Source: Fidelibacterota bacterium UBA2986 (lineage in GTDB: Bacteria > Fidelibacterota > Marinisomatia > Marinisomatales > AB-629-J13). Taken from it: 64,000 nucleotides of DNA. A program made the position numbers and the translations under genes. Below, one piece after another: positions 9,496 to 42,790 of this stretch. The stretch lies in NCBI GenBank assembly GCA_002346675.1, contig DEAI01000011.1, forward strand, positions 194,710-258,709. The letters run 5' to 3'. Numbering within the stretch: the stretch's first letter is position 1; each line of letters starts with the position of its first letter. Below the pieces are notes generated by a model. It did no database searches. It saw nothing but the letters and a program-made list of their open reading frames with translations, and was not told the DNA's origin.

Positions 9496-9503
9496 CCTCT
9501 TAC

Positions 9504-9811: not shown

Positions 9812-9826
9812 CCTGTTAATAACATT

Positions 9827-16131: not shown

Positions 16132-16757
16132 TGCAAACTGCCGAACATACTGGATCTTTAAGGACAACCTACCCCCTTATAGTAAGGGTTATGGCACTTT
16201 TGTCTGTGTTTATTCTAGTTTTTATGTTTTTGTTGTTTCCCCGGTTTGGTGGAAAGCTGGTTTTAGAGGAGCAGGCACAGATAATTATAGAGCAGATTGA
16301 GATACCACAGACCCAACAGATAAATCGCCCACCTCCGCCCGCTAGGCCGTCAATTCCAATAGAATCTGAGAGTGAGGATATATCTGAAGACCTTACGATG
16401 GACGAACTAGACCTTGAAAGTTTTGAGGCCTGGGACGCACCCCCTCCCCCACCAGAAGGGCCTCAGGTTAAGTTTATTCCATATGATGACCCACCAGTTC
16501 CCAAAACTCCAATTAGACCAGAATATCCTGAGATTGCGCAGGAAGCGGGAATTGAGGGGACTGTTTATGTTCAGGCCTTTATTGACGAAAGAGGAAGAGT
16601 AAAAGAGGTGTTGATAGCAAAAGGCATTCCAAACACAGGGCTTAATGAGGCCGCAATGGAGGCAATTCGAAAAACTCGATTTAACCCTGCAAAACAAAGA
16701 GAGAGAGCGGTGGGGGTTTGGATATCTATTCCAGTTAACTTCAAACTGAAAAACTAA
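16128..16757 (+). CDS. tonB: Energy transducer TonB
   Basis: 209 aa. N-terminal TM, Pro-rich linker (PPPPARPSIP...PPPPPEGP) and TonB C-terminal domain (GIEGTVYVQAFIDERGRV...AVGVWISIPVNFKL). Confidence 0.82.
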   Translation: MMQTAEHTGSLRTTYPLIVRVMALLSVFILVFMFLLFPRFGGKLVLEEQAQIIIEQIEIPQTQQINRPPPPARPSIPIESESEDISEDLTMDELDLESFEAWDAPPPPPEGPQVKFIPYDDPPVPKTPIRPEYPEIAQEAGIEGTVYVQAFIDERGRVKEVLIAKGIPNTGLNEAAMEAIRKTRFNPAKQRERAVGVWISIPVNFKLKN

Positions 16758-16836
16758 ACTTTCTTTTTGGGAGGCCTGTTTTTAAAAGAGAAGAGAGTTT
16801 TCTCAATATAAAAAAACAGGGAATAACTTTAAAACG

Positions 16837-16875
16837 CTAGGCGACAAAAGACAATCTATAGCGCTTGTCGCTTGG
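16837..16875. terminator. Inverted repeat between convergent tonB and sdhB, a possible bidirectional terminator
   Basis: The core stem is GCGACAA (16841..16847) pairing with TTGTCGC (16865..16871), extendable with wobble pairs. The 17-nt loop is longer than in a classic terminator. On the minus strand it is followed by CGTTTT. Confidence 0.3.
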
Positions 16876-16876
16876 T

Positions 16877-17614
16877 TTAAAAACTAGCCCTCACGAACTC
16901 TCGGTTTAGACGGGCTATATTCACAATAGATATTTCTTTAGGGCACTCTACCTCACAGGCTGAGGTATTAGTGCAGTTTCCAAAACCCTCTGTGTCCATT
17001 TGTTTTACCATATTTTTTGCCCGAGAGGCTCTCTCTACCTGCCCCTGAGGCAAAAGCGCATATTGTGAAACCTTTGCGCCCACAAAAAGCATAGCAGAGG
17101 AGTTTTTACATGCAGCAACACATGCGCCGCAACCTATACAGGCTGCAGCGTCAAAGGAAAGGTCAGCATTCTTTTTTGAAACAGGAAGAGTGTTTGCATC
17201 TGGGACTCCACCAGTACTGACAGAAACATACCCTCCGGCTTCCATTATTCTATCGAACCCTTTTCGGTCTACAACCAAATCTCGTATTACGGGGAACGCT
17301 GCAGCCCTCCAAGGCTCTACAATCAAAACATCACCATCTTTAAAGCTGCGCATGTGTAATTGGCAGCTGGTGGTTCCGCTTAGGGGACCATGAGCTCTAC
17401 CGTTAATCATAACACCACATGTTCCGCAGATTCCCTCACGGCAGTCGTGGTCAAAAGATATAGGATCTTTTCCCTCGAGAATAAGTTGATTGTTGAGCAT
17501 ATCCAACATTTCAAAGAAGGACATATCCTCAGATACATTATCAACACTATAAGACTCAAATCGTCCCTCTGCATTGCGATGATTTTGGCGCCATGCTTGA
17601 ACGGTAATTTTCAT
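16877..17614 (-). CDS. sdhB: Succinate dehydrogenase/fumarate reductase iron-sulfur subunit
   Basis: 245 aa. Cys clusters [21 protein letters not shown] and [12 protein letters not shown]. Confidence 0.93.
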
Positions 17615-19527
17615 TATTTATAACTCCTTGTAGTCAGGTCTACTTCTTCAAAATCGAGCTCCTCTTTATGGAGCTTTGGAACAGAATCGCTTCCTTTGTG
17701 TTCCCAGGCGGCCGCATAAGAAAACGACTCATCATTTCTTTTTGCTTCATTTTCTTCGGTTTGATATTCTTCACGAAAATGCCCTCCGCAGGATTCTTCC
17801 CTGTGCAGGGCATCTCTTGCCATAAGCTCCCCTAGCTCTAAAAAATCTGCCAGACGACTGGCTTTTTCAAGCTCGGGATTGTATTCATTCATATCGCCAG
17901 GAACGTGAACACTTTTCCAAAAGTCTTCTTTAAGTTTCGGGATAAGCTCAAGAGCTTTTTTTAACCCTACCTTGTTGCGCGCCATACCTACATGTTCCCA
18001 CATAATTTTCCCTAATTCTTTATGAATATCGTCCACAGTTTTTGAGCCTTTTATAGATAACATTTTTTCTAGATTTTCTTTTACAACCTTTTCAGCTCTA
18101 AGGAAGTGATCATCTGATGTTTTAACTGTACACATTTTCTCTCTTGCAAGATAATCTCCAATAGTATATGGTATAATAAAATATCCATCTGCGAGACCCT
18201 GCATAAGAGCGCTGGCTCCTAACCTATTGGCTCCATGGTCAGAAAAATTAGCTTCACCGAGAACGTGTAAACCGGGGACGGATGACATAAGGTTATAGTC
18301 CACCCAGAGTCCACCCATGGTATAATGTACTGCGGGATATATTTTCATAGGGGTTTCATAGGGGTTTTCACCTGTAATCTGACGGTACATATCAAAAAGA
18401 TTTCCATATTTTTCTGAGACCCACTCCTTTCCTTTACGGCTGATTACATCTTCAAAATCTAAATAGACGGACAGCTTTGTGGCCCCGACACCATGACCTT
18501 TGTCACACATTTCTTTTGCCCTGCGTGAGGCTACGTCGCGGGGCACTAAATTTCCAAAAGAGGGATACAGACGCTCTAGGTAATAGTCTCTATCTTCTTC
18601 AGGAATATCGTTAGGGTTTCGATAGTCACCGGCCTTTTTAGGAACCCAGACCCGGCCATCATTTCTTAAGCTTTCGCTCATAAGGGTAAGTTTTGACTGA
18701 TGTTCGCTGGAAACGGGGATGCATGTAGGGTGAATCTGTGTAAAACAGGGGTTCGCAAAGTATGCACCCTGTTTGTGTGCCCGCCAAGATGCCGTAACAT
18801 TAGATGCCATCGCATTAGTAGAAAGAAAAAACACATTTCCATAGCCACCTGTTGCTAGAATTACAGCATCCGCAGAGTGAGAACAAATTTCTCCTGTCTC
18901 CAGGTTTCTAGTTACAATTCCTCGGGCCCTACCCTCTACTTTTACAATATCTAACATATCATGACGGGGATAAAAGGCGACCTTTCCTGCGTTCATCTGT
19001 CTAACCAAAGCAGAATAAACACCTAACAACAGCTGCTGCCCTGTTTGTCCTCGGGCATAAAAAGTACGGGACACTTGGGCACCGCCGAAAGAGCGGTTGT
19101 CTAACAGACCACCATATTCCCTGGCAAACGGAACACCCTGCGCTACACACTGATCGATGATATTACTACTAACCTCTGCTAGACGATAGACGTTGGCCTC
19201 TCTGGCTCGGTAGTCACCGCCCTTGATTGTATCATAAAACAGGCGATAAACGCTGTCTCCGTCGTTTGGATAGTTTTTTGCTGCGTTGATTCCTCCTTGA
19301 GCTGCAATACTGTGAGCGCGACGAGGAGATTCATGATAAGAGAAAGCCTTCACATTATAACCCAGTTCTGCTAGGGTTGCGGCAGCGGACCCCCCAGCCA
19401 ACCCAGTTCCAACAACAATAATATCATATTTTCGTTTATTAGAGGGATTAACAAGCTTCATAGAAAACTTATGATTGCTCCACTTTTTAGAAATGGGTCC
19501 TTTAGGGGTTTTCGAATTAAGACTCAC
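17614..19527 (-). CDS. sdhA: Succinate dehydrogenase/fumarate reductase flavoprotein subunit
   Basis: 637 aa. FAD motif [15 protein letters not shown], the [12 protein letters not shown] covalent-FAD His region, and HYTMGG. Confidence 0.95.
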
Positions 19528-19536
19528 AATAATTTA

Positions 19537-20199
19537 TTATTTAATAAACCCGAAATACAGCGGAATTGAAACAAAACCAAGGGGAATGATAAGCCAAAAA
19601 AGAACAGAGACCTTTTCTATGGCTCCTTTATAGCGAGACTCTCCCAAACCAAAGGTCTGAAAGGCAGACTGAAATCCATGGCGTAAATGTATAGCCAACA
19701 ACAAGAGAGCTATAATATAGAACAAAGCAATAGCAGGGTTTTTATAGCCAACAGAGCTATTTACAACAATCTCATAGAAGCCCGTATCATTGCCTTGTTT
19801 TTTTTGAAAACTCCACCAAAAAGTTTGAAGATGGAAAACAAGAAAGATAAAAATAACGCTTCCAGAAACAGCCATAGTTCTGCTGTAAAACTTAGAAGTT
19901 GAACTTCCTGGAGACACTCGGTATGGTTGGGGCTTTGCTTTTCTGTTTTCCAGAGTAACCTGGATTCCCGAAAAAATATGACAAATGAAAATTAAAACAA
20001 GGACTACCTCGGCAATTCGAATAAGGGGCTTTATAGACCTTAAGGAAAGAACATAGTTATTAAACATTTCAGCACCACCAAACAGCATAAGGTTTCCAGC
20101 TAAATGCGTGATAAGAAAAAAAACCAGCATTATGCCGGTGACCGCCATAAGAAACTTTTTTCCGATGGAAGTTTGAAAAAACTGAATGAGCCAGGTCAT
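19537..20199 (-). CDS. sdhC: Succinate dehydrogenase cytochrome b subunit (b558-type, 5 TM)
   Basis: 220 aa polytopic membrane protein with conserved His residues (ITHLAGN, ICHIF, AIHLRHG), directly upstream of sdhA and sdhB. Confidence 0.8.
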   Translation of the reverse strand: MTWLIQFFQTSIGKKFLMAVTGIMLVFFLITHLAGNLMLFGGAEMFNNYVLSLRSIKPLIRIAEVVLVLIFICHIFSGIQVTLENRKAKPQPYRVSPGSSTSKFYSRTMAVSGSVIFIFLVFHLQTFWWSFQKKQGNDTGFYEIVVNSSVGYKNPAIALFYIIALLLLAIHLRHGFQSAFQTFGLGESRYKGAIEKVSVLFWLIIPLGFVSIPLYFGFIK

Positions 20200-20311
20200 A
20201 TTTATATTATATTGAAACTATCATTCCCAAAAAAGTGCTCGCCACAATAATAATTAGATTACATAGTATATAGAAATTAACTAAAAACAACAGCCAAACG
20301 AAAGAAGAGCG

Positions 20312-20728
20312 TTATATCCTTCCCGCTAAAACAGCCCCCAGGTGTGATCCATAAAACAGAAAAACAATGGCCAAACCTCCAAGCATAAAATATAAAACAA
20401 GCGCCCACCTAGTGTCTGGTAGTTTTTTTTCAAACTTGAGTCTTAAAGCAAACATTACAACAAAAAGTAATATTGATATAATTTGTAAAGAACCGTGAGA
20501 TTTAAAAACAGGAAAGGGGTTTTCAAAATGACCATAGTTCCAATCTGCTATAAACCCAGAGAGAACAGAAAAAGAAGAAGCAAGAATTCCCGAAAAAAGA
20601 TTCCACCACCCTGCGGTTTCAAGGCCTCTTTTCTTTAGGACAAGGGATAAACCATCAAAAAGATATCCAACAGAAAGAAGAGCGATGGGAAAATGAACCA
20701 CTAAAGGGTGTATATCGGTTATTTCCAT
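20312..20728 (-). CDS. DUF2231-family membrane protein
   Basis: 138 aa with 4 TMs. The N-terminal HPLVVHFPIALLSVGYLFD matches the DUF2231 signature. Confidence 0.6.
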   Translation of the reverse strand: MEITDIHPLVVHFPIALLSVGYLFDGLSLVLKKRGLETAGWWNLFSGILASSFSVLSGFIADWNYGHFENPFPVFKSHGSLQIISILLFVVMFALRLKFEKKLPDTRWALVLYFMLGGLAIVFLFYGSHLGAVLAGRI

Positions 20729-20755
20729 TTTATAGCACCGAAAATCAACAAACAG

Positions 20756-21217
20756 TTAAAGGTTATCATACTTTTTTATTTTTATAGATCCATAGATACT
20801 CACAATCAACAAAAAAGTAATAATATGTGTTAACCATATAAACGGGGTGGTTGGTATAAAAGAAAACTCAACATAATAAATACCAGCCACAACAAACAAA
20901 AGAGCAGAATGGAGGCTGTTTCTTGCTAGCGCTGTTCCCATTTTAGTAACTAAAACATAGAGAACAATTAAAAAACCAACAGAGCCAAGCCATAAACCAA
21001 AAAACCTATAAAGTAGAGACAGGTAGAGATGTAACTCGCTGTTTATACCTTTGCTTAACAGGTCTTTGAAGGAGACAGTTAAAAGCAGTTCGTTTGCCTT
21101 TTTATCTAAAAGCCAGGGTTCCCCGATTGTAAAATATGTTATTCCAACTGCTAGAGCAATTAATCCAACTAAAAATATAGGTACCCAAACCAAATTATGA
21201 TATTGTCTGCCATTCAT
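20756..21217 (-). CDS. Hypothetical integral membrane protein
   Basis: 153 aa with about 4 predicted TM segments and no motif I recognise. Called as a gene because of its operon context and hydrophobic periodicity. Confidence 0.45.
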   Translation of the reverse strand: MNGRQYHNLVWVPIFLVGLIALAVGITYFTIGEPWLLDKKANELLLTVSFKDLLSKGINSELHLYLSLLYRFFGLWLGSVGFLIVLYVLVTKMGTALARNSLHSALLFVVAGIYYVEFSFIPTTPFIWLTHIITFLLIVSIYGSIKIKKYDNL

Positions 21218-21238
21218 TGCCTAAACTTAATAATGTAT

Positions 21239-22024
21239 TTAAAGAAAAACCCTAAGTTCTGCAATTGAATCTATGATAGCGTCTGGCACAATGTCTGACT
21301 GCTCTAAAATATCCTGATCATACTTTCCGGTTTTAACCAAAACCGATTTTATTCCGACGGCCTGTGCCCCCCCTATATCGTTTATCAGGTCATCCCCTAT
21401 CATCGTAACACACTGGGGTGGTAGCTGTAGGTCCGATAGGGCAGCACAAAAGAAATCTTTGTTTGGTTTTCCCAGAGAGATTGCTTTTTTCCCTGTTACA
21501 TATTCCAGTCCCGCAACAATTGCACCAATATCCATATCTAGCCCCCCACTCACCTTAAAGTATTTTCCCTTATGCAGAGCCAGCAACTCAGCTCCTCGCA
21601 TAATATAGCGGAAGGCCCGGTTAATATCATTATATGTCCAATTGTGCCCCCGGTCGCCTATGACCACCCAGCTTGGCTCGTCTCTTTCACAATCAAACCG
21701 ACGGTAGTCTTCCATAAGCTCGTCGCTGATGAGCAAATGACATTTTGGAGATCCAAGTGAGTCTAAATATATTTCTCCAGCCCTACCAGCGCTTATAATT
21801 TCATCTTCTTTTATATCTAAACCAAGATTGCCTAGTTTTTCTGTCAGCTGTTTTCGTGTTTTTGAGGTGGTATTAGTAATAAAACGAAACGGAAAGTTTT
21901 TTTTACGTAGCTGTGATATTATTTCTGCCCCCCCCTGAATAAGCTTTTCGGAAATATAAAACACTCCATCTAGGTCCAACAGGAATGCTTTTTGTTTCAA
22001 TGATTTGCTTTTCACAACCAACAC
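21239..22024 (-). CDS. HAD-superfamily hydrolase, subfamily IIA (NagD/LHPP-like phosphatase)
   Basis: 261 aa. Motif I FLLDLDGVFY, motif II FITNTTS, and C-terminal MIGDDLINDIGGAQ. Confidence 0.8.
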   Translation of the reverse strand: MLVVKSKSLKQKAFLLDLDGVFYISEKLIQGGAEIISQLRKKNFPFRFITNTTSKTRKQLTEKLGNLGLDIKEDEIISAGRAGEIYLDSLGSPKCHLLISDELMEDYRRFDCERDEPSWVVIGDRGHNWTYNDINRAFRYIMRGAELLALHKGKYFKVSGGLDMDIGAIVAGLEYVTGKKAISLGKPNKDFFCAALSDLQLPPQCVTMIGDDLINDIGGAQAVGIKSVLVKTGKYDQDILEQSDIVPDAIIDSIAELRVFL

Positions 22025-22063
22025 ACTACCTTTATAAAAACAAGAATAATAAACATATTAAGA

Positions 22064-22792
22064 TTAGAGATGACTTCTTTTAAGGCTGTTAAAGCATAGC
22101 CATTGAAATAGTTTAAGCTGGGTTTCGTCGTCTGTCATTATTTCTGGATGCCACTGAACGGCGAGAAATAATTCGGGAGAAGCTAGGTCCTCGATTGATT
22201 CAACAAGACCGTCCGGGGCCGTCCCGGAGACACCTAAACCTTCCCCCAGTCTGTGGATTCCCTGGTGATGTGTGCTGGCTACTTTAATATTTGTTTTTTT
22301 TAAAACAGAAAACAGATAGCTTTTTTTGTTTAGAAAAACATCATGGTATGAAACCTTTCCGTTAAATTCGCCGTGATCAATTTCTGAAGGGTTAAGCGTT
22401 TTTAAATCCTCATAAAGGGAGCCCCCATAAATAACATTAATATGTTGCAGCCCGACGCAAATGCCCAGAACTGGTTTTTTAAATTGTTTAGCTGTTAAAA
22501 ACAGCTGTCTATCAAAGGACTCTCTTTCAGGTAGCATTACATCTTTATCAAGAAGCTCAGCGTTGTTTCCTTTATATAGATTACAGGGAATGTCTGGCCC
22601 GCCCACCATAACAAATCCATCGATTTTTTTTACAAGATCAAACACAGAACGTTTTTCTAGAGAATGGTGGACTGTAACTGGAACACCCCCGGCTTTCCAT
22701 ATAGCGGTATAATACTTATCTCTTGTTCCGTTCCAAAAAGAATTTCTATAATTAAAATAATAAGGATTTATTCCGATAAGAGGTTTTTTCAT
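22064..22792 (-). CDS. Class I glutamine amidotransferase-like, peptidase C26 family (gamma-glutamyl hydrolase, PuuD-like)
   Basis: 242 aa. Nucleophile elbow GICVGLQHINV and the His region VQWHPE. Confidence 0.8.
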   Translation of the reverse strand: MKKPLIGINPYYFNYRNSFWNGTRDKYYTAIWKAGGVPVTVHHSLEKRSVFDLVKKIDGFVMVGGPDIPCNLYKGNNAELLDKDVMLPERESFDRQLFLTAKQFKKPVLGICVGLQHINVIYGGSLYEDLKTLNPSEIDHGEFNGKVSYHDVFLNKKSYLFSVLKKTNIKVASTHHQGIHRLGEGLGVSGTAPDGLVESIEDLASPELFLAVQWHPEIMTDDETQLKLFQWLCFNSLKRSHL

Positions 22793-22802
22793 TTTATAGG
22801 CT

Positions 22803-24104
22803 TTAAAAATTCTTCAAATAGTTTTCTCTAATAAAAAAGCCCAAATCTCTGCTCTCTAGAGAAAACAAATCTTGGTTTTTTAATGTCCAGGCACGGTCTA
22901 GAGCTGACTCTAAAAAGCTTTCTAAGAAAACAGTCTCAGACTTTATTTTTAAAAACCTTTTACGCTCTTCTAGACCACGGAGCGCACAGTCAGCTATAAT
23001 TTTTAACCACTGCCCACAGGTTTTTCCTTCTGGGCCTTTTTGAGACAGGTCTAAACGGAGCGCGGCTGCATTCAGAGATTTCCTTTCTATGTTTGACCAA
23101 CAAGAAACTCTTTCCCGAAGCTCTTCCCTGACATTTTCTGCTGTCAGGAGCCCACACCAAAAAGCTGCAGGGGCCAACTCATATCCAAAAGGGGGACGGT
23201 CGGACCCGCGGACCTCTAAGACGCTCTTAAAACGAATGTGTGTAAATATTTGACGGAGGGCAGACTGTATATGTTTATCTGAGAGGGTGCGGTCATTGTA
23301 AAGAGATTTCAGCCACTCCCCCAAGGTGCCACCAAAAGCCCTTGTTTTTAAAAAGTTGTCTAGAATAAAAATAGCCGGGACAGATAAAATATGTTCAACA
23401 AAAGAATAAATTAAATTCTGATGTTTAATAATACCATGGTCAAACAAATTTCCACATCGAGGAGAGTCTGTATCGTTCCAAATTTCAAGCCTTAAGTTTC
23501 TGTTTTCAGCAGGGCTTCCTTTTAGGAAGGGTGAGTTCGAAAACAACAAAAAACCAAAAGGCTGGAGACAGTCTGCCACATAAGCCATACTTTCTCCATC
23601 CTTTTCGCTTGTCATATCAATATTTACCTGAACACTGGCTGTGTTTCTCATCATCCACGGGCCGTGTTTACCTGTTGAACAAAAACGCTTGTTCATTAAT
23701 TGATACTTTTTGATGTTTATTAATTTTACCTTTTCAGGATTATAAATTGGGTCCAGGGAAAACCCCAAAGGAAAAACCTTATAGCTATCACATAAAGACC
23801 TAAGGCCCTTATTGTGGCTGTCTAGCTGTGCCTGTATATCATGAAGGGACACAAAAGGTGCAGAGGCCCACTCAACCTGTCCTCCGGGCTCTAAAGAATA
23901 TGAGCCCACCCCTCTTCCCTGATGCTTTTCTAGCTTATCCACAAGCTCTGTAGATGACATCTGGTCTCCAGGGTTGACAGGGAGCCTTCTCATTTGGTTG
24001 TCAAAAAAAATTGTTTCTATTTCAACGCCTATTCGCCGGTCTTTTGGGTGCTGAAAATTGGAAAAAATAAACTGTAAAACCTTTTCTATTATAGGGCTGT
24101 CCAC
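22803..24104 (-). CDS. Glutamate-cysteine ligase family protein (plant/GCS2 type); true substrate unknown
   Basis: 433 aa. RIGVEIETIFF and SLEPGGQVEWASAP parallel the IGTEHEKFGF and EPGGQFELSGAP segments that I recall from plant-type GCL. Confidence 0.68.
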   Translation of the reverse strand: MDSPIIEKVLQFIFSNFQHPKDRRIGVEIETIFFDNQMRRLPVNPGDQMSSTELVDKLEKHQGRGVGSYSLEPGGQVEWASAPFVSLHDIQAQLDSHNKGLRSLCDSYKVFPLGFSLDPIYNPEKVKLINIKKYQLMNKRFCSTGKHGPWMMRNTASVQVNIDMTSEKDGESMAYVADCLQPFGFLLFSNSPFLKGSPAENRNLRLEIWNDTDSPRCGNLFDHGIIKHQNLIYSFVEHILSVPAIFILDNFLKTRAFGGTLGEWLKSLYNDRTLSDKHIQSALRQIFTHIRFKSVLEVRGSDRPPFGYELAPAAFWCGLLTAENVREELRERVSCWSNIERKSLNAAALRLDLSQKGPEGKTCGQWLKIIADCALRGLEERKRFLKIKSETVFLESFLESALDRAWTLKNQDLFSLESRDLGFFIRENYLKNF

Positions 24105-24106
24105 AG

Positions 24107-24649
24107 TTAGGATTTATATAGAGATTTTGTTTTTAATATCATTCTTTTAATAGAGGGCTCAGAATTTAAATTAAATATTTTATGAATTGGAACCCACGCT
24201 AAGTCGTGAGACTCGTGGTTAGCTATTATAAGCTCTTTTTCTGGATTTGCCTGTAGCAAGAAGCGAACATCATAGTGATAGTGAGAGGGCTCATCAGCAA
24301 ATTGTGGGACTTTATGAATATCAAGGTCAAAAATATATTCACTTAATATTTTAAAAATTTTTAAGCCAGACTCTTCTTTAGCCTCTCTAACAGCAACCTC
24401 AAGCAAGTTTTTCTCTCCATCTGAATGACCACCCAACTGAAGCCACTTGTTTAGTTTTTTATGATGGGTCAAAAGAACTTTAGATCTGTCAGGACTTACA
24501 ATCCACGCCGAACCAGTGAAATGCCCAAGAAAATTTTTTCTGGAAAAAACGCTGGACTGGTTTATTAGAAATCCTAACATCTTAGAGGGGGCCCTTTCAT
24601 GAGGGTGGTCTAGAATATATTGATCAATTAGTTTTTTTAAGGTGTTCAT
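24107..24649 (-). CDS. NUDIX hydrolase
   Basis: 180 aa. Nudix box GGHSDGEKNLLEVAVREAKEESGL. Its start overlaps the permease stop by 4 nt. Confidence 0.85.
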   Translation of the reverse strand: MNTLKKLIDQYILDHPHERAPSKMLGFLINQSSVFSRKNFLGHFTGSAWIVSPDRSKVLLTHHKKLNKWLQLGGHSDGEKNLLEVAVREAKEESGLKIFKILSEYIFDLDIHKVPQFADEPSHYHYDVRFLLQANPEKELIIANHESHDLAWVPIHKIFNLNSEPSIKRMILKTKSLYKS

Positions 24650-25656
24650 TTTTTCATATGTGGGTCTAGATGGTCTCTTATACTGTCACCTAAGAGGTTG
24701 AACGCTAAAACAGTTATAGCTATAGCAACACCGGGAGCAACCGATATCCACGGAGCTGTTCTTATAAAGTCCTTTCCTAAATTAATCATGGAGCCCCAGC
24801 TGGGTGTGGGGGGCTGTGCGCCAAGGCCCAAAAAAGAGAGGCTTGCCTCCGCCAGAATGGCCGAGCCGATTCCTAGGGTATAGGTAACAACAATAGGAGA
24901 AATACAGTTTGGTAGAATATGCCTCCATAAAATCTTACCTGAGTTCAGCCCTATAGTTTGTGCTGCTAAAACGTATTCCTGGTGTTTTACAGAGAGAACC
25001 TGACCTCTAACAAGCCGAACAATGCCAGGCCAAGAAACCAACCCAATAGCAATAAACACCACCAAAAGGCTTGGCTCAAAAATTGATGTAATTGCAATTA
25101 AAAACAACAAAACAGGAAACCCAAACATCATATCTGTTACACGCATAATAATAGTTTCTGTCCACCTCCCGAAGTAGCCAGCAAGTCCCCCCAATAAAAC
25201 ACCAACCAGCAAAGAGAGGGTGCTTGCACATACGCCAACAGCAAGTGATATCCTCGTCCCAAACAAAACCCTAGACAGCACATCTCTTCCAAACTGATCT
25301 GACCCCAATATAAAAGTAAAAGATTTAATCCAATCCCTCTCAAGCTTTTCTTTAGATATAAAAAACTGCCTTCCAATTAAATCATCGTAATATACACCCT
25401 CTTGAGACTCTTGATATGTTTCTATTGCAACTGTCTGTATTGGGAGGTTTTTACGGTGCCGAAAACGGATTACCTGACCTCTAAAACCAGGAGGTTTATT
25501 TCTAAACTCCAAAACCTGAGAGTTTGGAGGGGCAGGAGAAATTTTATGGGCAAACAAACCCAGAAGAACAAGTAATATGATAAAAAAAACACCAAACCAA
25601 ACAGAGAAAGGCAAGCTGTTTATTGAACAATATATTTTGCTTTTTGTTATTCTCAA
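24646..25656 (-). CDS. ABC transporter permease, peptide/nickel type (DppC/OppC-like)
   Basis: 336 aa. The EAA-loop region EASLSFLGLGAQPPTPSWG is typical of DppC/OppC. Confidence 0.9.
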   Translation of the reverse strand: MRITKSKIYCSINSLPFSVWFGVFFIILLVLLGLFAHKISPAPPNSQVLEFRNKPPGFRGQVIRFRHRKNLPIQTVAIETYQESQEGVYYDDLIGRQFFISKEKLERDWIKSFTFILGSDQFGRDVLSRVLFGTRISLAVGVCASTLSLLVGVLLGGLAGYFGRWTETIIMRVTDMMFGFPVLLFLIAITSIFEPSLLVVFIAIGLVSWPGIVRLVRGQVLSVKHQEYVLAAQTIGLNSGKILWRHILPNCISPIVVTYTLGIGSAILAEASLSFLGLGAQPPTPSWGSMINLGKDFIRTAPWISVAPGVAIAITVLAFNLLGDSIRDHLDPHMKK

Positions 25657-26618
25657 TTGCGCTCTCCGGCCCTAATGCGGGGATCAATTGTTCCATATAG
25701 TATATCAACAATTAAGTTAACCAAAATAAAGATTATTGCCATAAAGAGAACTGTCCCCTGAATTACAGGAAAGTCTCGCTTTAAAATAGACTCAAGGACC
25801 AGCCTTCCTATTCCCGGCCAACCAAAGATTGATTCTGTGAGAACTGCGCCAGAAAGATAGCTTCCAAAGTCCGTTCCGATGATGGTCAAAACAGGAATTA
25901 AGGAGTTTGGTAGCGCATGTTTTGTTATTATTTTCCAGCGAGGTAGCCTCTTGGCACGTGCCGTTCTAATAAAGTCCTGGTTTAGTGTTTCCAACATGGA
26001 GGCCCTGGTAAGCCGGGTGATTTGGGCTGCAGAACGAAGCCCAAGCGTTAGAGATGGAAGAATGATGTACTCAACTCCTCCGTATCCGGTGGGCGGCAGC
26101 CAGGCTAAGTGTACACCAAAAACTAAAACAAAAACCAACCCCGTCCAAAAAACAGGAGAAGATATTCCCGCTAAAGCAAAAACCATTACCGCTTTATCTA
26201 TCCACGACCCAGGGACAAGCGAAGTATAAACCCCCAAAGATACCCCAACCAAGACAGCTATAAACATTGCCGAAACTGCGAGAATAAGTGTGTTTGGGAA
26301 TTTTTCCATAATCTCACTTAATACAGGCCTATTTGTTATAAAAGAGGTTCCCAGGTCTCCCCTAACGGTATTGCTAATAAAATGAAAAAACCGGAAAGAA
26401 AGAGGTTTATCTATATTCAATTTGTCTCTCATAATCTCTACTGTTTTTTCATCATATCTCTCTCCCACTATAGATAAAACCGGATCTCCAGGAAGAACGA
26501 TCATAAGAAAAAAGGAAATTATCAAGACCCCAAAAATAACGGGAAGGGTCTGAAAAATTCTGCTTAAAACATACTTACCCAACGGATTTCTTCTCCCAAT
26601 AAATATAACGCTCAGCAT
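25653..26618 (-). CDS. ABC transporter permease, peptide/nickel type (DppB/OppB-like)
   Basis: The track ORF is 25653..26759. Its first ~47 codons overlap the SBP gene and look non-genic, so I trimmed to the ATG at 26618. A TTG at 26582, just before GKYVLSRIFQTLPVIF, is an alternative start. The body is typical DppB (FIRTARAKRL...). Confidence 0.85.
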   Translation of the reverse strand: MLSVIFIGRRNPLGKYVLSRIFQTLPVIFGVLIISFFLMIVLPGDPVLSIVGERYDEKTVEIMRDKLNIDKPLSFRFFHFISNTVRGDLGTSFITNRPVLSEIMEKFPNTLILAVSAMFIAVLVGVSLGVYTSLVPGSWIDKAVMVFALAGISSPVFWTGLVFVLVFGVHLAWLPPTGYGGVEYIILPSLTLGLRSAAQITRLTRASMLETLNQDFIRTARAKRLPRWKIITKHALPNSLIPVLTIIGTDFGSYLSGAVLTESIFGWPGIGRLVLESILKRDFPVIQGTVLFMAIIFILVNLIVDILYGTIDPRIRAGERN

Positions 26619-28125
26619 TAAAAACAAGTTTAGGTTTATATCCAAAGATATAGCTTTGAGTGAGAGTGTAGCTACCCTTGTGCCACAGAAATATCCAGGG
26701 AGCGTCGTTGTGTAAAAGAAGACACGCTTTTTGAATAAGCTTGTCCCGAACCTGGCCATGTGATGAGGACTGTATTTTTAGAATAATTTCATCAAGGTTT
26801 GGATTGGAATAGCGGTTCCTTTTTTTCATTGATTGTTCAGAGAAAAAAAGAGGATAAAGAAAGTTTTCTGCGTCTGGATAGTCTGCCGTCCAGTTTAGGT
26901 AATACATAGGAGGTCTTCCATTTCTAACGGAAGCTTTAAATACATTCCAATCACTGTGAAGAATGCTCACATTTATCCCGATAGAGGCCCAGTCAGCCTG
27001 AAAGGCTTCAAGAACGTGAAACATTTCTGAGCCACCCCCAACCCACAGCTCAGTATCAAACCCACCAGCAAAACCAGCCTCTTCCAATAAACCAATAGCG
27101 CCCTCAGGGTCATAGGGGTATGGATTAATTTTATGGTTGCCAGCCAATAGAGAAGGCGGAACTGCGCTTGAAGAGAGCTCACCACCAGGGATAAGCAGGT
27201 GAAGATGTTTTTCTCTATCAAGCGATAGGTTCATAGCCCGCCTTACACGGTAATCGTCAAAGGGAGGCCTTGAACAGTTTAATCCTATATACCAAATATT
27301 TAATTCATCAGAGTATTCTATATGATTTTTGTGTTTATCTTTTTGTTTCCATCTATTTATCTCTGTTGGTGGTATTGATAAAAAATCCAAGTTTCCAGCT
27401 TCAAACTCAGCGGACTGAGTAATAGCCTCAGATAAAATTCTAAACCTAAGTGTATTTTCTAAGGGCTTTTCTCCCCAATAGTTTTCATTTCGGACAAGGT
27501 TAATTTCACCATCTCTATTCCAACCTAAAAGCTTCCAGGGGCCGCTTCCTGCGGGAAGTTCGTTTATTAATTTTTCCATTTTGCGGTTTATAATTGAAGC
27601 CGCAGGCATTGCAAGATATTGAATAAAGGGAGAAAAAGGGGCTTTTAGTTTTATAATTAAGGTGCTATCGTTTTTAGCTGTTAGGCCTCTTACAGATAAA
27701 GACTTTTTATTCATAAAAGCATCAGCCCCATCAATCTTTAAGAACATCCAAGACTGGGGAGACAAAACCTCAGGACTTAAAATGCGACTAATCGAATAAA
27801 CTACATCCTGAGCTTTTAGGGAGCTTCCATCATGAAAGAAAATACTGTCCCTAATAGTAAATCTATATTCCAGATCATCTTTAGAAATTCTCCAGCTTTT
27901 GGCAATTCCTGGTAATATTTCAGTGGAGTCACCAAAATGAACAAGATTATCATAAACAAGAGAAATTAATTTGCCGGATCTTACATCTACTGCGAGAGCC
28001 GGATCAAACCCACGAATATCAGCGGAAAGGGCTAGCTGGAGGCTGCTATCGGGAACAGAGTTTTTACACCCAACAAAAACAAATAAAATCGAAACAGCGG
28101 CAACGCCCCGAAAATTAACACACAT
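26575..28125 (-). CDS. ABC transporter substrate-binding lipoprotein, family 5 (peptide/nickel/glutathione type)
   Basis: 516 aa. Lipobox FVFVGCKN. DppA/OppA/GsiB-like length and sequence pattern (LVYDNLV..., ENYWGEKP). Confidence 0.9.
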   Translation of the reverse strand: MCVNFRGVAAVSILFVFVGCKNSVPDSSLQLALSADIRGFDPALAVDVRSGKLISLVYDNLVHFGDSTEILPGIAKSWRISKDDLEYRFTIRDSIFFHDGSSLKAQDVVYSISRILSPEVLSPQSWMFLKIDGADAFMNKKSLSVRGLTAKNDSTLIIKLKAPFSPFIQYLAMPAASIINRKMEKLINELPAGSGPWKLLGWNRDGEINLVRNENYWGEKPLENTLRFRILSEAITQSAEFEAGNLDFLSIPPTEINRWKQKDKHKNHIEYSDELNIWYIGLNCSRPPFDDYRVRRAMNLSLDREKHLHLLIPGGELSSSAVPPSLLAGNHKINPYPYDPEGAIGLLEEAGFAGGFDTELWVGGGSEMFHVLEAFQADWASIGINVSILHSDWNVFKASVRNGRPPMYYLNWTADYPDAENFLYPLFFSEQSMKKRNRYSNPNLDEIILKIQSSSHGQVRDKLIQKACLLLHNDAPWIFLWHKGSYTLTQSYIFGYKPKLVFNAERYIYWEKKSVG

Positions 28126-28264
28126 GATGTTACAAAAATACGATATTTAAATAGCTAACTCTAAACGCATTAATAAAAGAGAAAGAGCACCTTTTACGCG
28201 TAATTATGATTATTTGACCACCTTAAATTTCTGCCTTATTTTTATGTAATATTAAAGGATATCT

Positions 28265-30967
28265 ATGAACAAATACGTTTACTTTTTTGGAAATGGAACA
28301 GCTGATGGCAGGGCTGATATGAAAAACTTATTAGGGGGAAAGGGAGCCAATCTGGCTGAAATGAATCATTTAAATATCCCCGTTCCGCCGGGTTTTACAA
28401 TAACCACTGAGGTGTGTACCCATTTTTATAGCAATGACCACCATTTACCAGAAAAACTAGAGAAGGAGGTAAACGAGGCACTAGCAAAGACTGAAAAAAT
28501 CATGTGCACAAAATTTGGAGATAAAAGCGAACCTCTTTTGGTGTCTGTTCGTTCTGGTGCACGCTCTTCGATGCCGGGAATGATGGAAACCGTATTAAAT
28601 GTTGGTTTAACAACGGAGACCATACCGGGCATCATTAAAAAAACAAATAACCCCAGGTTTGTTTATGATGCATACAGGCGGTTAATTATGATGTATGCTG
28701 ATGTCGTTATGGAAAAGGCTACAGGGGTCGAACCGAAAGACGGATACGGCATTCGGCATAGACTGGAGTCTATCCTTGATGTTTATAAAGAAAAAAATAA
28801 TTACAAAAATGATACAGACCTTTCGGGCGATGATTGGAAAAGGTTAACCGAAGTATTTAAATCTGAAATAAAAACAGTGTTGGGGTCTGACTTTCCAGAT
28901 GACCCTATGGAACAGCTTTGGGGTGGAATTAAAGCTGTTTTTCAAAGTTGGAATGGAGTAAGAGCTATTAATTACCGTCGCATCGAAAACATTCCCGATG
29001 AATGGGGGACGGCCGTTAATGTCCAGTCCATGGTGTTTGGGAATATGGGCAACAGCTCTGCTACCGGTGTTGCCTTTACCAGAAACCCCGCAACAGGAGA
29101 AAATAATTTTTTTGGTGAGTGGTTAACCAACGCCCAAGGAGAGGATGTAGTGGCGGGTCTGCGAACACCAAACCCTCTAAATGAGGCAACAAAAACAGCA
29201 GACACCCAAAATCTCCCATCACTTGAAACATCAATGCCAGAAATTTATACACAGCTGGATACGATCCGAACTAATCTGGAAAAACACTATACAGATATGC
29301 AGGACATTGAGTTTACAATCCAAGAGGGCAGACTATGGATGCTTCAGACACGAGTTGGAAAGCGAAATGGTAGCGCAGCGATTAAAATGGCTGTGGAGAT
29401 GGCTAACGAAGGTTTAATTGACAAAAAGACGGCCATCATGAGGGTCAAACCAGAACAGCTGGACGAACTGCTTCATCCGATGTTAGATAGTGAATCAGAA
29501 AAAACCGCCAATCTGCTTGCTAAAGGGTTGCCTGCGGGTCCAGGTGGAGCCAAAGGAAGAGTTGTTTTTACGGCTGATGATGCTGAAGAGTGGCACAAGA
29601 ATGGTGAACAGGTAATTTTAATTCGAGAAGAGACCTCGCCCGAGGATGTACACGGTATGCACGCTGCAGAAGCTATTCTCACAGCAAAAGGGGGGATGAC
29701 ATCCCACGCTGCCCTTGTTGCACGTGGTTGGGGAAAATGCTGTATCGTTGGGTGTAGCGACCTACACATAAATGCACCAGCGAAAGAGGTTTCCATTGGC
29801 GACTCTGTTTTAAGAGAAGGTGATTGGATTACTATGAACGGTACAGTGGGACACCTCTATATAGGTCAGCTGGATTTAATTCCCGCAGACCCGGATACTC
29901 ACAGAGAATATAAAGAATTAATGAGATGGGCAGATGAGTTTCGCTCTATGAAAATCCGGACTAATGCCGAAAGTCCGGCAGATGCTGCACAGGCAATCCG
30001 GTTTGGGGCCGAAGGAATTGGGCTGTGTCGTACAGAGCACATGTTCTTTGATGAAACACGAATTCTTGCGATGCGAAAAATGATTTTGGCAGACAATGAA
30101 TCCGATCGCAGGGCGGCTGTTATGGAGCTACTTCCATTTCAAAAAGAAGATTTTAAGGGAATTTTAACAGCCATGAAGGATAAGCCTGTTACTATTCGTC
30201 TTTTGGATCCACCTCTTCATGAATTTATGACTCTAACAGATGGTCAAGTTAAAGAGCTGGCAACCCATGTGGGTCTGGAAATATCAAAACTAGAAAAACG
30301 AATTTCAGGGCTTCACGAGCTGAACCCTATGTTGGGACACCGTGGATGTAGATTAGGGATTGCCTATCCAGAAATTACGGAGATGCAAGCAAGGGCAATT
30401 TTAGAAGCCACAGCCGAGCTGACACAAGAAAATATCTCTGTTTTTCCCGAAATTATGATTCCACTGGTGGGGACTGTCACAGAATATATAGATCAAGAAA
30501 CTATTGTTCGAGCAGTTGGAAAAGAGGTCGAAATAGAAAAAGGAATTAAACTCAATTATATGGTAGGAACAATGATTGAACTGCCAAGAGCCTGCCTTAC
30601 GGCAGATGAGATTGCCCAACATGCAGAGTTTTTTAGTTTTGGAACCAATGACCTCACTCAAACAACCTACGGTTTCAGTCGAGATGATATTGGTTCTTTC
30701 CTGCCAGACTATTTGGACAGGAATATATTAGATGGAGACCCCTTCCAAAGTTTGGACGTGAATGGTGTAGGAAAGCTCGTATCTATGGCAGTGAAACAGG
30801 GGCGTGGTGTAAATAGGAGATTAAAGATTGGAATTTGTGGCGAGCATGGTGGAGATCCTTTTTCAATTCATTTTTGTAAAGAAAACGGGCTAGATTATGT
30901 GAGCTGTTCTCCTTTCCGCGTACCAATTGCTAGGCTCGCAGCAGCCCAAGCGAGCATCAGTGAATAA
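28265..30967 (+). CDS. ppdK: Pyruvate, phosphate dikinase
   Basis: 900 aa. Phospho-His motif GGMTSHAALVARGWGKCCIVG and the C-terminal PEP-utilising TIM-barrel motif GICGEHGGDP. Confidence 0.97.
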   Translation: MNKYVYFFGNGTADGRADMKNLLGGKGANLAEMNHLNIPVPPGFTITTEVCTHFYSNDHHLPEKLEKEVNEALAKTEKIMCTKFGDKSEPLLVSVRSGARSSMPGMMETVLNVGLTTETIPGIIKKTNNPRFVYDAYRRLIMMYADVVMEKATGVEPKDGYGIRHRLESILDVYKEKNNYKNDTDLSGDDWKRLTEVFKSEIKTVLGSDFPDDPMEQLWGGIKAVFQSWNGVRAINYRRIENIPDEWGTAVNVQSMVFGNMGNSSATGVAFTRNPATGENNFFGEWLTNAQGEDVVAGLRTPNPLNEATKTADTQNLPSLETSMPEIYTQLDTIRTNLEKHYTDMQDIEFTIQEGRLWMLQTRVGKRNGSAAIKMAVEMANEGLIDKKTAIMRVKPEQLDELLHPMLDSESEKTANLLAKGLPAGPGGAKGRVVFTADDAEEWHKNGEQVILIREETSPEDVHGMHAAEAILTAKGGMTSHAALVARGWGKCCIVGCSDLHINAPAKEVSIGDSVLREGDWITMNGTVGHLYIGQLDLIPADPDTHREYKELMRWADEFRSMKIRTNAESPADAAQAIRFGAEGIGLCRTEHMFFDETRILAMRKMILADNESDRRAAVMELLPFQKEDFKGILTAMKDKPVTIRLLDPPLHEFMTLTDGQVKELATHVGLEISKLEKRISGLHELNPMLGHRGCRLGIAYPEITEMQARAILEATAELTQENISVFPEIMIPLVGTVTEYIDQETIVRAVGKEVEIEKGIKLNYMVGTMIELPRACLTADEIAQHAEFFSFGTNDLTQTTYGFSRDDIGSFLPDYLDRNILDGDPFQSLDVNGVGKLVSMAVKQGRGVNRRLKIGICGEHGGDPFSIHFCKENGLDYVSCSPFRVPIARLAAAQASISE

Positions 30968-33618: not shown

Positions 33619-35094
33619 ATGACTGATAAACTATTATCTTATAATCCTATAACACAAGAAGTTGTGGGAACGGTGCCCTTGACAACCGATGAGGAACTAA
33701 AAGATGTTCTTGAAAGAAGTAAAAAGGGTGAAAAGATATGGAGCACACTAAGAGTATCAGACAGGGCGGAAATACTTAATGGTATCAGAAAAAATCTAGT
33801 CAAAAAGTCTGATGAGTTTATTTCTACTATATCAAATGAGACAGGCAAGCCCTATTGGGATAGTTTTGTAGAGGTAATGACCGTGGCGGAACACCTGAAA
33901 TATATGTGCCGCCATGCTCCTGTTATTTTATCAAGAGAGAAACGACCAACAGGAATTCTTGTTCACAAAAGAGGTTACGTTCAATATTTTCCTCATGGGA
34001 CGGCAGGAATTATTTCACCCTGGAACTACCCATTAATATTAGCTATATCTCCTGTGGTAGAAGCTCTCCTTGCAGGAAACAGCGTTGTTCTGAAGCCTTC
34101 AGAGGTCACACCAATAACAGGAGATAAAATACACAGACTGTTTTTGGATGGGGGGGTCCACGAAAGTGTTTTTCAAATAATTCAAGGATACGGAGATATA
34201 GGGTCTAAGTTAGTTGAAAGCCCACAATCTGATATCATTTGTTTTACAGGAAGTGTGAAGGTGGGAAAACTGATTTCTGAACACTGTGCCAAGCAACTTA
34301 AGCCCTCTATTCTTGAGTTGGGAGGAAACGACCCTATGATAATATTAGAAGATGCGGATATAGACCGCGCAGTCTCTGCTGCGATATGGGGGGGGCTTTC
34401 AAACAACGGACAAACCTGCATTGCTGTAGAACGAATTTATGTAATGGAGTCTATTGCTGATGTGTTTTTAGAGCTCCTCAAAAAAAGAGCTAAAGAATTA
34501 AATATTTCTGATGACAAAAAATCTGCTGACATTGGTTCAATGATTAACCAAAAGCAAAAGGAAACCGTTATATCGTTCATCGATGAGGCAAAAAAAGAAG
34601 GAGCCACTTTTCATTTAGACTATAATCAGAAAACAAAAGACAGTTCTTGTTTTTTGTACCCAACAATTATTGAAGAAAAAAACAGAAAAAGTAAAATTAT
34701 GCAATCTGAAATATTTGGCCCTGTGATTACTGTTTTTAGGGTCAGCTCAGAGCGTGAAGCTATTTCAGAAGCAAACTCCAGTGGCTATGGACTAAGTGCA
34801 TCAGTATTTTCCAAAAACTTACGAAAAGGGCGTGAAATAGCTAAACAGATAAAAGCGGGTTCCGTATGTATAAATGATGTTAACTCAAACTATGGCTGTG
34901 CGTCACTACCGTTTGGAGGTGTTGGAATCTCTGGAATTGGTAGGGTTCGTGGAGAGGAGGGGCTGAAGGCCTTTTCCCGGGTTCAAGCGGTTTATGAGGA
35001 CCGCTTAGGATTAAAAAAAGAGCCATGGTGGTTTCCAGTGTCAGACCATACTAAAAAATGGTTTAAGAGATTTTTTAGATATTGGTATAGCTGA
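33619..35094 (+). CDS. NAD(P)-dependent aldehyde dehydrogenase family protein
   Basis: 491 aa. LELGGNDP (catalytic Glu), the catalytic Cys in NNGQTCIAVERIYV, and EIFGPV. Confidence 0.92.
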   Translation: MTDKLLSYNPITQEVVGTVPLTTDEELKDVLERSKKGEKIWSTLRVSDRAEILNGIRKNLVKKSDEFISTISNETGKPYWDSFVEVMTVAEHLKYMCRHAPVILSREKRPTGILVHKRGYVQYFPHGTAGIISPWNYPLILAISPVVEALLAGNSVVLKPSEVTPITGDKIHRLFLDGGVHESVFQIIQGYGDIGSKLVESPQSDIICFTGSVKVGKLISEHCAKQLKPSILELGGNDPMIILEDADIDRAVSAAIWGGLSNNGQTCIAVERIYVMESIADVFLELLKKRAKELNISDDKKSADIGSMINQKQKETVISFIDEAKKEGATFHLDYNQKTKDSSCFLYPTIIEEKNRKSKIMQSEIFGPVITVFRVSSEREAISEANSSGYGLSASVFSKNLRKGREIAKQIKAGSVCINDVNSNYGCASLPFGGVGISGIGRVRGEEGLKAFSRVQAVYEDRLGLKKEPWWFPVSDHTKKWFKRFFRYWYS

Positions 35095-37247: not shown

Positions 37248-38138
37248 GTGAGAAACATTAAGAAGGCTAATCTAGCCTGGCTGGTCATAGCTCTTTTTTC
37301 GGTTAGCTCTTCTTCAATTATAGTACGTTTTCTTCCGAGCATCTCTGCAGAGGTAATTGCCTTTTGGAGGATGGCTCTGTCATCTTTTATGCTGTGGTTT
37401 TATAGTGGGGTAAAAAGGCAGGGACACTTAAACTCTTCATTTAAAAAGCCTGTTATCATTGCAGGCATATTTCTTGGGTTTCACTTTGGACTGTTTTTTT
37501 CAGCAGTCAAACTCACAACTATTTCTAATGCAACTCTATTAGGAACAACTGCACCCCTATTTTCTCTTATAATTGAAATATTTGTTTTAAAGAGGCAATT
37601 TCCTGTTGTCACGATATTTGGTGTTTTTTTAGCATTTTTTGGTGTTTTGGTTGTTCAAGATTTTTCAATTGATTTTAATACAGAAGAGTCAAAGGGGAAT
37701 CTATTTGCCATTTTATGCTCCCTATGTATCGCCCTTGTATTTATTATTGCAGAAAAGGTCAGACAACACACCTCAACTATTGTTTATTGTAGGCACCTGT
37801 TTATGTGGGCAGCTATCACATTGGCGGTCATTTCAGTATTAGGGAATAAATCTCTTTTTTGTTTTTCAGGGGAGGATTTTTTCCTGTTTTTTCTATTAGC
37901 ACTGTTCCCCTCAATTTTTGGACACGTTGTCTTTAATTATTTTATCAAATATTTCCGCCCATCTATAATTATATCGATTCCCCTGGGCGAGCCGCTTATC
38001 GCTTCATTTTTGGCGCTTGTATTCCTTTCGGAAGAGCCACTAACAAACACTTTAGTTGGAGGTGTTATTACTATTACAGGACTATTTATTCTGGGAGTTA
38101 AAAGTCAGGAAAGCCATTTTGCTTCCGAAAACGATTAA
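37248..38138 (+). CDS. EamA/DMT-family transporter
   Basis: 296 aa with about 10 TMs and a two-fold EamA-like organisation. GTG start. Confidence 0.78.
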   Translation: MRNIKKANLAWLVIALFSVSSSSIIVRFLPSISAEVIAFWRMALSSFMLWFYSGVKRQGHLNSSFKKPVIIAGIFLGFHFGLFFSAVKLTTISNATLLGTTAPLFSLIIEIFVLKRQFPVVTIFGVFLAFFGVLVVQDFSIDFNTEESKGNLFAILCSLCIALVFIIAEKVRQHTSTIVYCRHLFMWAAITLAVISVLGNKSLFCFSGEDFFLFFLLALFPSIFGHVVFNYFIKYFRPSIIISIPLGEPLIASFLALVFLSEEPLTNTLVGGVITITGLFILGVKSQESHFASEND

Positions 38139-40430: not shown

Positions 40431-40436
40431 GCTAGT

Positions 40437-42781: not shown

Positions 42782-42790
42782 AAATAATTA

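Follow-up and report, generated by a model that had tools for sequence, protein, structure and literature searches.

Nine consecutive genes on the minus strand of a contig of Fidelibacterota bacterium UBA2986 (DEAI01000011.1, assembly GCA_002346675.1) encode a peptide-type ABC importer, a Nudix hydrolase, a putative glutamate-cysteine ligase (GCL) homolog of the GCS2 family, a peptidase of the C26 family, a HAD phosphatase, and two membrane proteins, which raises the question of whether they serve one pathway. The genes occupy positions 20312-28125 of the 64,000-nucleotide stretch that we have analyzed, hereafter the window. An earlier note on this DNA had tentatively taken the nine genes for a single unit with a gamma-glutamyl theme. 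The gene order of related genomes splits the cluster into independent modules, and we lean towards the view that the nine genes of this very compact Marinimicrobia genome are a lineage-specific juxtaposition and not a single pathway. With about the same moderate confidence, we consider the GCS2 ligase, with the C26 hydrolase encoded next after it, to be the only conserved functional module of the nine genes.

Gene order around the ligase in related genomes

For the ligase, C26 and Nudix genes, the homologs carry the names Marinimicrobia, Neomarinimicrobiota or Fidelibacterota. We have compared 19 Marinimicrobia loci anchored on the ligase (39-60% identity), viewed within 10 kb on either side and scored with the proteins of the window; all 19 contain the ligase by search design. 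The most constant downstream neighbor is the succinate dehydrogenase (SDH) operon, present in 16 of the 19 loci, and a divergent PPDK gene lies upstream in most of them. A multi-pass membrane protein of the cluster (TM153) was found beside the ligase block in 9/19 loci, always between this block and SDH. The C26 gene stands beside the ligase in 7/19 loci, the Nudix gene upstream of it in 7/19, the gene of the DUF2231 membrane protein immediately upstream of SDH in 7/19, and the importer beside the ligase in 5/19, and the HAD gene was found in none of the 19.

The order of the six genes from the solute-binding protein (SBP) through the two permeases (PermB and PermC), the Nudix hydrolase and the ligase to the C26 hydrolase is intact in two loci with a ligase identity of 54-59% (L001, L002). 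Five loci have the Nudix-ligase arrangement and lack the importer and C26 (L009, L010, L012, L013, L024), four have ligase-C26 and lack the importer and the Nudix gene (L003, L005, L007, L018), three have importer-ligase and lack the Nudix gene (L006, L008, L011), and two have the ligase without any of these modules (L004, L017). The gap between the ligase and whatever gene adjoins it ranges from -38 to +34 nt, depending on the locus. The complete set of nine is seen only in the contig of the window itself (L090). A very close relative (L089, 89% ligase identity) keeps the genes from the ligase through SDH, including the HAD gene, on a contig that begins at the ligase, so that the importer and Nudix positions fall outside the view. 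The loci at or below 60% ligase identity are thus a mosaic of modules, and the proposal of a nine-gene unit fails by the synteny criterion that the earlier note had set for it, because each module adjoins the ligase without the others in relatives. Among 67 proteobacterial plant-type gshA loci, none (0/67) has a C26, importer or Nudix gene within 10 kb of gshA.

A separate observation concerns one of the importer-ligase loci, in which genes of the Aldolase_II and IF-2B families, resembling MtnB and MtnA of methionine salvage, come after the ligase with overlapping junctions (L006, 10001-12944). This locus has no C26 or Nudix gene, and a 474-aa protein of no family is encoded between its importer and its ligase.

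The translational coupling of the permease, Nudix and ligase genes might suggest a functional link, and this argument loses its force when the whole window is considered. About 94% of the window is coding, as counted with a simple non-overlapping set of open reading frames (ORFs), and the gaps between same-strand genes have a median of 9 nt, with 23 of the 41 gaps being of at most 10 nt and 30 of the 41 of at most 40 nt. A second run of nine co-directional genes, which is functionally mixed, is packed alike, most of its gaps being of at most 23 nt and two longer. Because such spacing is the norm for the genome, the short or overlapping junctions of the cluster carry no special weight. Streamlined marine genomes show stop/start overlaps and long co-directional runs by default, and these features offer little evidence of shared function. 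In addition, the run extends past position 20312: after a gap of 112 nt come sdhC, sdhA and sdhB, which makes 12 genes in all.

A consensus scan of the region 16500-28500 gave counts at chance level, with 27 promoter-like sites of the sigma-70 type (expected, 25.4) and 17 terminator-like sites (expected, 12.6); the consensus may not suit this phylum. None of the terminator-like sites is located between genes of the run, and the scan speaks neither for nor against one operon. An Rfam scan yielded no riboswitch or leader at the locus, its sole match being a tRNA-Gln at 62678.

The ligase and the C26 hydrolase

The association of these two genes is best appreciated from the side of the C26 gene. 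Six C26-anchored Marinimicrobia-type loci have sequence upstream of C26, i.e., two with a divergent C26 on long contigs (L087, L088) and four from a metagenome scan (L093-L096), and a GCS2-type ligase is located directly upstream in 6/6. Since the ligase-anchored loci gave only 7/19, it appears that C26 depends on the ligase as a neighbor and that the ligase does not depend on C26. The adjacency is kept in L087, where SDH is 5.5 kb off and other genes lie between. It is also found in L088, whose ligase is a YbdK-type GCS2 protein of 365 aa without detectable similarity to the ligase of the window; the order there is GGT-like, YbdK-type GCS2, C26 (5300-8726), in a context unrelated to SDH. A gene encoding a gamma-glutamyltransferase (GGT)-like protein (PF01019) is present in 5/6 of the C26-anchored loci, and in L093-L097 it lies convergent right after C26. 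The GGT-like proteins next to the pair have no signal peptide, and all except that of L097 have the GSTTH nucleophile motif. The gamma-glutamyl theme of the earlier note was therefore sustained for the ligase and C26, which are adjacent in 6/6 and to which relatives add a GGT-like gene, and had to be abandoned for the other genes.

In other phyla, 75 loci have a more distant C26 (30-39% identity); none of them has a plant-type ligase beside C26, and one has a YbdK-type gene 3.3 kb away. On an unrelated metagenome contig of this set (L124, 1217-3592), an SBP_bac_5 gene comes 9 nt after C26, and another contig (L136, 615-6708) carries, in this order, DppB, DppC, DppD, DppF, an RpiR regulator and C26.

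The ligase passes the Pfam GCS2 model with 82.9 bits (gathering threshold, 21), and its best sequence matches in the PDB are the plant GCL structures 2gwc and 6gmo (E 1e-34). An AF2 model of the protein (pLDDT 94) is colinear over its full length with 2GWC (TM 0.86-0.87, rmsd 2.5-2.6 Å, E 1e-26), with a TM of 0.6 to YbdK. The ligase retains 43 of the 116 columns that are invariant in 67 proteobacterial GshA proteins, among them the Glu, Gln, Asn, Asp and Arg residues in the catalytic motifs that the enzymes share. Plant GCL has a conserved Arg220 (PMC6463388), and the two Arg residues that are candidates for its equivalent, R205 and R216, are both retained in the ligase. As judged from the modeled fold, this enzyme is a divergent homolog of the plant-type (group 3) GCL. 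We have seen no gshB-like family among the ORFs of the window.

The second-best model for the ligase, after the plant-type GshA equivalog TIGR01436, is that of EgtA, with 98 bits (cutoff, 371). A reading of the ligase as the EgtA of an ergothioneine pathway was considered and set aside, given this score below the cutoff and the lack of EgtB- or EgtD-like proteins among the family hits of the window ORFs and in the neighborhood tables of the relatives, which are general hits and not the result of a targeted search.

The C26 hydrolase scores 167 bits with PF07722 (threshold, 20.5). Its triad, Cys112-His215-Glu217, is invariant in an alignment of 14 sequences of the family, and likewise Q116, four residues after the Cys. 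The AF2 model (pLDDT 88) has a TM of 0.86-0.88 to SpuA (7D50/7D53) and PuuD (6VTV), of 0.60-0.67 to glutamine amidotransferase subunits (GMP or CTP synthase domains), and of 0.62 to the plant enzyme GGP1. The model thus predicts a stand-alone gamma-glutamyl-amide hydrolase of the PuuD/SpuA type, and the score with the PuuD equivalog NF008471 (gamma-Glu-GABA hydrolase) is 86.5 bits, below the cutoff of 266.

The importer and the remaining genes

The positions of the genes are collected in Table 1. The ORF map and the sequence bear out the nine minus-strand genes and the junction lengths of the earlier note, and the profile-HMM assignment of the ORFs agrees with its families. From the PermB/PermC junction onward, the junctions measure -4, -4, 2, 10, 39, 21 and 27 nt. 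As read on the sequence, the permease/Nudix junction is an ATGA overlap, and the Nudix gene ends 2 nt before the GTG start of the ligase.

The start of PermB is ambiguous, TTG at 26582 or ATG at 26618, the latter being the public gene call for the same contig; we prefer the TTG, which overlaps the stop of the SBP gene by 8 nt. The start of PermC is also ambiguous, TTG at 25656 or another TTG 14 codons downstream. In the public gene call PermC begins 38 nt past the stop of PermB, and the PermC proteins of relatives are called at 336-337 aa. The divergent intergenic region between the SBP and PPDK genes is the likeliest promoter region for the run.

Table 1. Coordinates of the nine genes, their neighbors and other features of the window.
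Feature	Position	Strand	Assignment or remark
SDH/fumarate reductase operon: cytochrome b, flavoprotein, Fe-S subunit (sdhC, sdhA, sdhB)	16877-20199	-	translations
DUF2231 membrane protein	20312-20728	-	PF09990, E 2e-18
TM153, multi-pass membrane protein, 153 aa	20756-21217	-	no family
HAD-IIA phosphatase	21239-22024	-	TIGR01458, 202.2 bits (cutoff, 175.95)
Peptidase C26, 242 aa	22064-22792	-	Peptidase_C26 PF07722, E 7e-49
GCS2-family ligase, 433 aa, GTG start	22803-24104	-	PF04107, E 3e-23
Nudix hydrolase, 180 aa	24107-24649	-	PF00293, E 2e-11
PermC, DppC/GsiD-type permease	24646-25656	-	BPD_transp_1, E 9e-37; weak OppC_N match
PermB, DppB/GsiC-type permease	25653-~26582	-	BPD_transp_1, E 7.5e-44, and BPD_transp_1_N
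SBP, family-5 solute-binding protein	26575-28125	-	SBP_bac_5 PF00496, E 4e-86
Divergent intergenic region between SBP gene and PPDK, 139 nt	28126-28264		ORF map
PPDK	28265-30967	+	ORF map
dnaA	9827-11170	+	divergent from yidC-mnmE-mnmG-mfd (-)
Stretch of 553 nt without an ORF of at least 90 aa	32643-33195		between motA-like and Smr-domain genes
Aldehyde dehydrogenase	33619-35094	+	
Second nine-gene run	38098-45447		acyltransferase, SSB, LpxK, DUF374, LpxB, methyltransferase-like, oxidoreductase, YchF, FabZ-like, in this order
SusD-like gene and TonB-dependent receptor (SusC-like) pair	46454-50927		
Adenylate/guanylate cyclase with TPR repeats	51069-53489		follows the SusD/SusC-like pair

The importer has the composition of its family, i.e., a family-5 SBP and two BPD_transp_1 permeases. 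The N-terminus of the SBP is lipobox-like (FVGC; signal …FVFVGC, Cys20), and its best matches in the PDB are GbpA (3m8u, 5e-59), DppA (1dpp, 2.5e-53) and GsiB (1uqw, 1e-40). From its sequence, the SBP is assigned to the DppA/GbpA clade and would bind the substrate for a peptide-type ABC importer. The Asp corresponding to D408 of DppA, the binder of the free amino group of the ligand, is retained. At the position aligned to R355 of DppA, which we take to be the Arg that binds the carboxylate of the ligand, the SBP has a Glu and a loop five residues shorter; DppA and GbpA have Arg. The alignment narrows the ligand no further than to a peptide-type compound whose amino group is free. None of the Dpp, Gsi and Nik equivalog models reaches its cutoff with the importer proteins (GsiB, 159.5 against 594; DppA, 171 against 1005; GsiC, 301 against 463; GsiD, 249 against 484). 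We have discarded the match to GbpA as a hint of glutathione binding, GbpA being a Pasteurellaceae-specific offshoot of DppA (PMC3295651).

There are no ATPase genes of the DppD/F or GsiA type in the locus or elsewhere in the window, nor beside the importer in L001, L002, L006, L008, L011 and L095. Since no transporter ATPase is encoded in these 64 kb, the ATPases of the importer must be encoded elsewhere or shared. An SBP gene is found beside the ligase also in L095, a locus outside the 19-locus set. Any link of the importer with the ligase would be facultative, because the importer is absent in most lineages.

The best PDB match of the Nudix protein is the uncharacterised 3fcm. Its score with the model of NudB, the dihydroneopterin triphosphate diphosphatase, is 23.3 bits, below the cutoff of 103. 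Orthologs at 54-57% identity (L173-L176) are located in two unrelated neighborhoods with none of the cluster genes, and the Nudix gene is a recurrent, non-obligate neighbor of the ligase. The HAD protein matches 2ho4 and 2x4d, and TIGR01458 is an HDHD2/LHPP-like family; the gene was found only in L089 and in the contig of the window, and it is an insertion specific to the clade of the window. TM153 has no Pfam or NCBIfam match. The TM153 and DUF2231 genes travel together upstream of SDH, both where SdhA is 67-79% identical to that of the window and where the identity is only 26-30%, which hints at a respiratory role. We are inclined to consider the Nudix, HAD and the two membrane proteins as products of independent genes, the membrane pair going with the SDH operon. 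A folate or pterin reading of the locus, with a NudB-like Nudix, a gamma-glutamyl hydrolase and a phosphatase, was also rejected, on account of the NudB score far below the cutoff, the clear GCL fold of the ligase, and the HAD and Nudix genes not being conserved partners.

The distance to dnaA is about 10 kb, which places the cluster in a core region near the origin. The replication origin is probably at 9290-11170, where one perfect DnaA box (9803-9811) was found upstream of dnaA, the boxes showing no enrichment over chance. Elsewhere in the window, the stretch of 553 nt between the motA-like and Smr-domain genes is unusually long for DNA that is 94% coding, and has no Rfam match. A SusD-like gene is paired with a gene for a SusC-like TonB-dependent receptor, and a cyclase gene comes after this pair.

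Proposed function, alternatives and known systems

By analogy with characterized enzymes, we favor the view that the pair makes and breaks a gamma-glutamyl compound, which is probably gamma-glutamylcysteine. The ligase would use ATP to activate the gamma-carboxyl group of glutamate and join it to an amine, most probably cysteine, yielding gamma-glutamylcysteine; cysteine is the first candidate, since gamma-Glu-Cys is what plant-type GCL and EgtA, the two nearest characterized families, produce. C26 would cleave gamma-glutamyl amide bonds of the same kind, with a glutamyl thioester as the intermediate. The two enzymes, joined in some lineages by a cytoplasmic GGT-like enzyme, would build and recycle a pool of gamma-glutamyl (thiol) peptides. 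The Dpp-like importer would be a possible and dispensable feeder, e.g., of Cys-Gly or gamma-glutamyl peptides, and nothing ties it to the pair.

Two opposite alternatives have to be weighed against this proposal. According to one, the nine genes are one operon and one pathway, in which an imported gamma-glutamyl or thiol peptide, or a nucleotide-linked precursor, is processed by the Nudix, ligase, C26 and HAD enzymes, with the membrane proteins as accessories. The co-directional genes with short or overlapping junctions, the intergenic gaps free of terminator-like sites, the six intact genes of L001 and L002, and the glutathione binder GbpA as the closest solved relative of the SBP speak for it. 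However, the HAD gene is missing in 19/19 related loci, each module is seen without the others, the Nudix orthologs occur in unrelated contexts, the short junctions are the genome norm, and the run goes on into SDH. Moreover, GbpA, as a Pasteurellaceae-specific derivative of DppA, gives no cue to specificity, and the scans for promoters and terminators do not exceed chance and use a consensus that may not fit the phylum. We consider this pathway highly improbable. At the other extreme, nothing would be linked at all, the ligase being a housekeeping gshA with gshB elsewhere and C26 an unrelated amidohydrolase kept adjacent by inherited order. This would agree with the place of the ligase in a conserved core (PPDK ... 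ligase ... SDH, near dnaA) in nearly all relatives, with its occurrence without C26 in 12/19 loci, with its plant-type GCL fold, and with the strongly inherited gene order of the region. But the adjacency of C26 and the ligase outlasts rearrangement, both in L087 and in L088 with another GCS2 subfamily, five further loci have a GGT-like gene beside the pair, and a GCS2-type ligase is upstream of C26 in all six C26-anchored loci, which makes an accidental neighborhood unlikely.

A third alternative keeps the pair and changes the substrate to an amine other than cysteine, either in a Puu-like route, where the ligase would gamma-glutamylate an imported amine and C26 would take the glutamate off again once the amine has been modified, so that glutamate serves for protection or handling, or in a two-subunit amidotransferase in which C26 would feed ammonia from glutamine. 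C26 is indeed nearest to PuuD and SpuA in sequence and fold, it also pairs with a YbdK-type carboxylate-amine ligase, and the ligase departs from canonical GshA at 14 conserved positions with a score below the equivalog cutoff. Nevertheless, the pair lacks a conserved neighbor with a modifying function (oxidase, aldehyde dehydrogenase or other), and the aldehyde dehydrogenase of the window is apart from it and on the opposite strand. The Puu ligase is GS-like and not of the GCS2 family, C26 is far from the true amidotransferase subunits (TM 0.60-0.67), in most lineages the ligase functions without C26, and both of the nearest characterized families of the ligase make gamma-Glu-Cys. This alternative appears rather doubtful, somewhat less so than a complete lack of linkage.

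Several points weigh against our own proposal of juxtaposed modules with a pair for gamma-glutamylcysteine. The counts of absent genes are approximate, since several contigs of the relatives end early. The ligase scores 153.7 bits with the plant-type GshA equivalog TIGR01436, below the cutoff of 463.15, and at 14 GshA-invariant positions it holds another conserved residue, so that a non-cysteine amine is possible as its substrate. In structure, C26 resembles PuuD and SpuA, which hydrolyze gamma-glutamyl amines, more than GGP1, which cleaves glutathione. The loci with the importer next to the ligase span 42-60% ligase identity, so this arrangement is old, and three of the 75 distant C26 genes of other phyla are also near Dpp-type transporter genes (L124, L136, L145), which leaves some room for a real link of the importer. 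A pair that makes and breaks the same bond looks futile unless it is regulated or the substrates differ. Finally, the functions of all these proteins are predictions from sequences and models.

A bolder possibility, which we put forward only tentatively, is that the ligase, the PuuD-like C26 and, in some lineages, the leaderless GGT-like protein constitute an undescribed cytoplasmic gamma-glutamyl module, either fed by the Dpp-like importer or acting as a GCS2-based counterpart of the Puu pathway. If the importer-fed version were true, these oligotrophs could harvest and buffer cysteine from dissolved glutathione or gamma-glutamyl peptides; if the other were true, the ligase would have switched to a non-cysteine amine. 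More generally, a pair that handles gamma-glutamylcysteine or glutathione would bear on the supply and buffering of reduced sulfur in SAR406, and a ligase that uses another amine would be a new type of ligase for gamma-glutamyl tagging. The lead that remains is modest, namely, a C26 gene found strictly with a GCL-like ligase, and sometimes with a GGT-like gene, in an abundant uncultured ocean phylum. Literature searches on Marinimicrobia/SAR406 and glutathione, and on GCL and peptidase C26, yielded only general statements or nothing.

The ligase-hydrolase pair is a new combination of known kinds of enzymes, and each of its parts can be compared with characterized systems. The ligase shares with the group 3 GCL enzymes (GshA/GSH1; 2GWC, 6GMO) the full-length fold, the length class of about 430-450 aa, and the motifs LEPGGQxE, VQVNxD, NSPF, RxxIWxDTDxxR and VRFKxxLExRGxD, whereas the identity is only about 25-31%. 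In the ergothioneine system EgtA/EgtC, a GCS2-family ligase is likewise coupled to a hydrolytic step that later takes the glutamyl group off. EgtC, however, is a class II (Ntn) amidohydrolase and not a C26 enzyme, and the ergothioneine pathway also needs EgtB and EgtD. The importer shares a family-5 SBP and DppB/DppC-like permeases with DppABCDF/GbpA and GsiABCD, but the Dpp and Gsi importers have ATPase genes in their operons and the locus of the window does not.

The closest parallels for the pair itself are those in which a C26 enzyme removes glutamate from a product of a partner ligase. In E. coli (PuuA/PuuD) and Pseudomonas (SpuA/PauD), a gamma-glutamyl-amide ligase is also found together with a C26 enzyme that removes glutamate. 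The ligase of this polyamine pathway is GS-like, whereas that of the window is of the GCS2/GCL type, and enzymes for oxidation of the PuuB/PuuC type are not conserved beside the window-type pair in any locus. In plants, the C26 enzyme GGP1 degrades glutathione in the compartment of its use, beside its synthesis by GSH1 (PMC9804317, PMC12958103). This precedent in the plant cytosol is the one that we take for the proposed pool. The GSH1 and GGP1 genes are unlinked in plants, unlike the pair of the window, and the substrates of GGP1 are glutathione and its conjugates. The likeness lies in the kinds of enzymes, since in Arabidopsis GSH1 and GGP1 are also a plant-type GCL and a C26 peptidase that act on one gamma-Glu-Cys bond (PMC9804317, PMC12958103).

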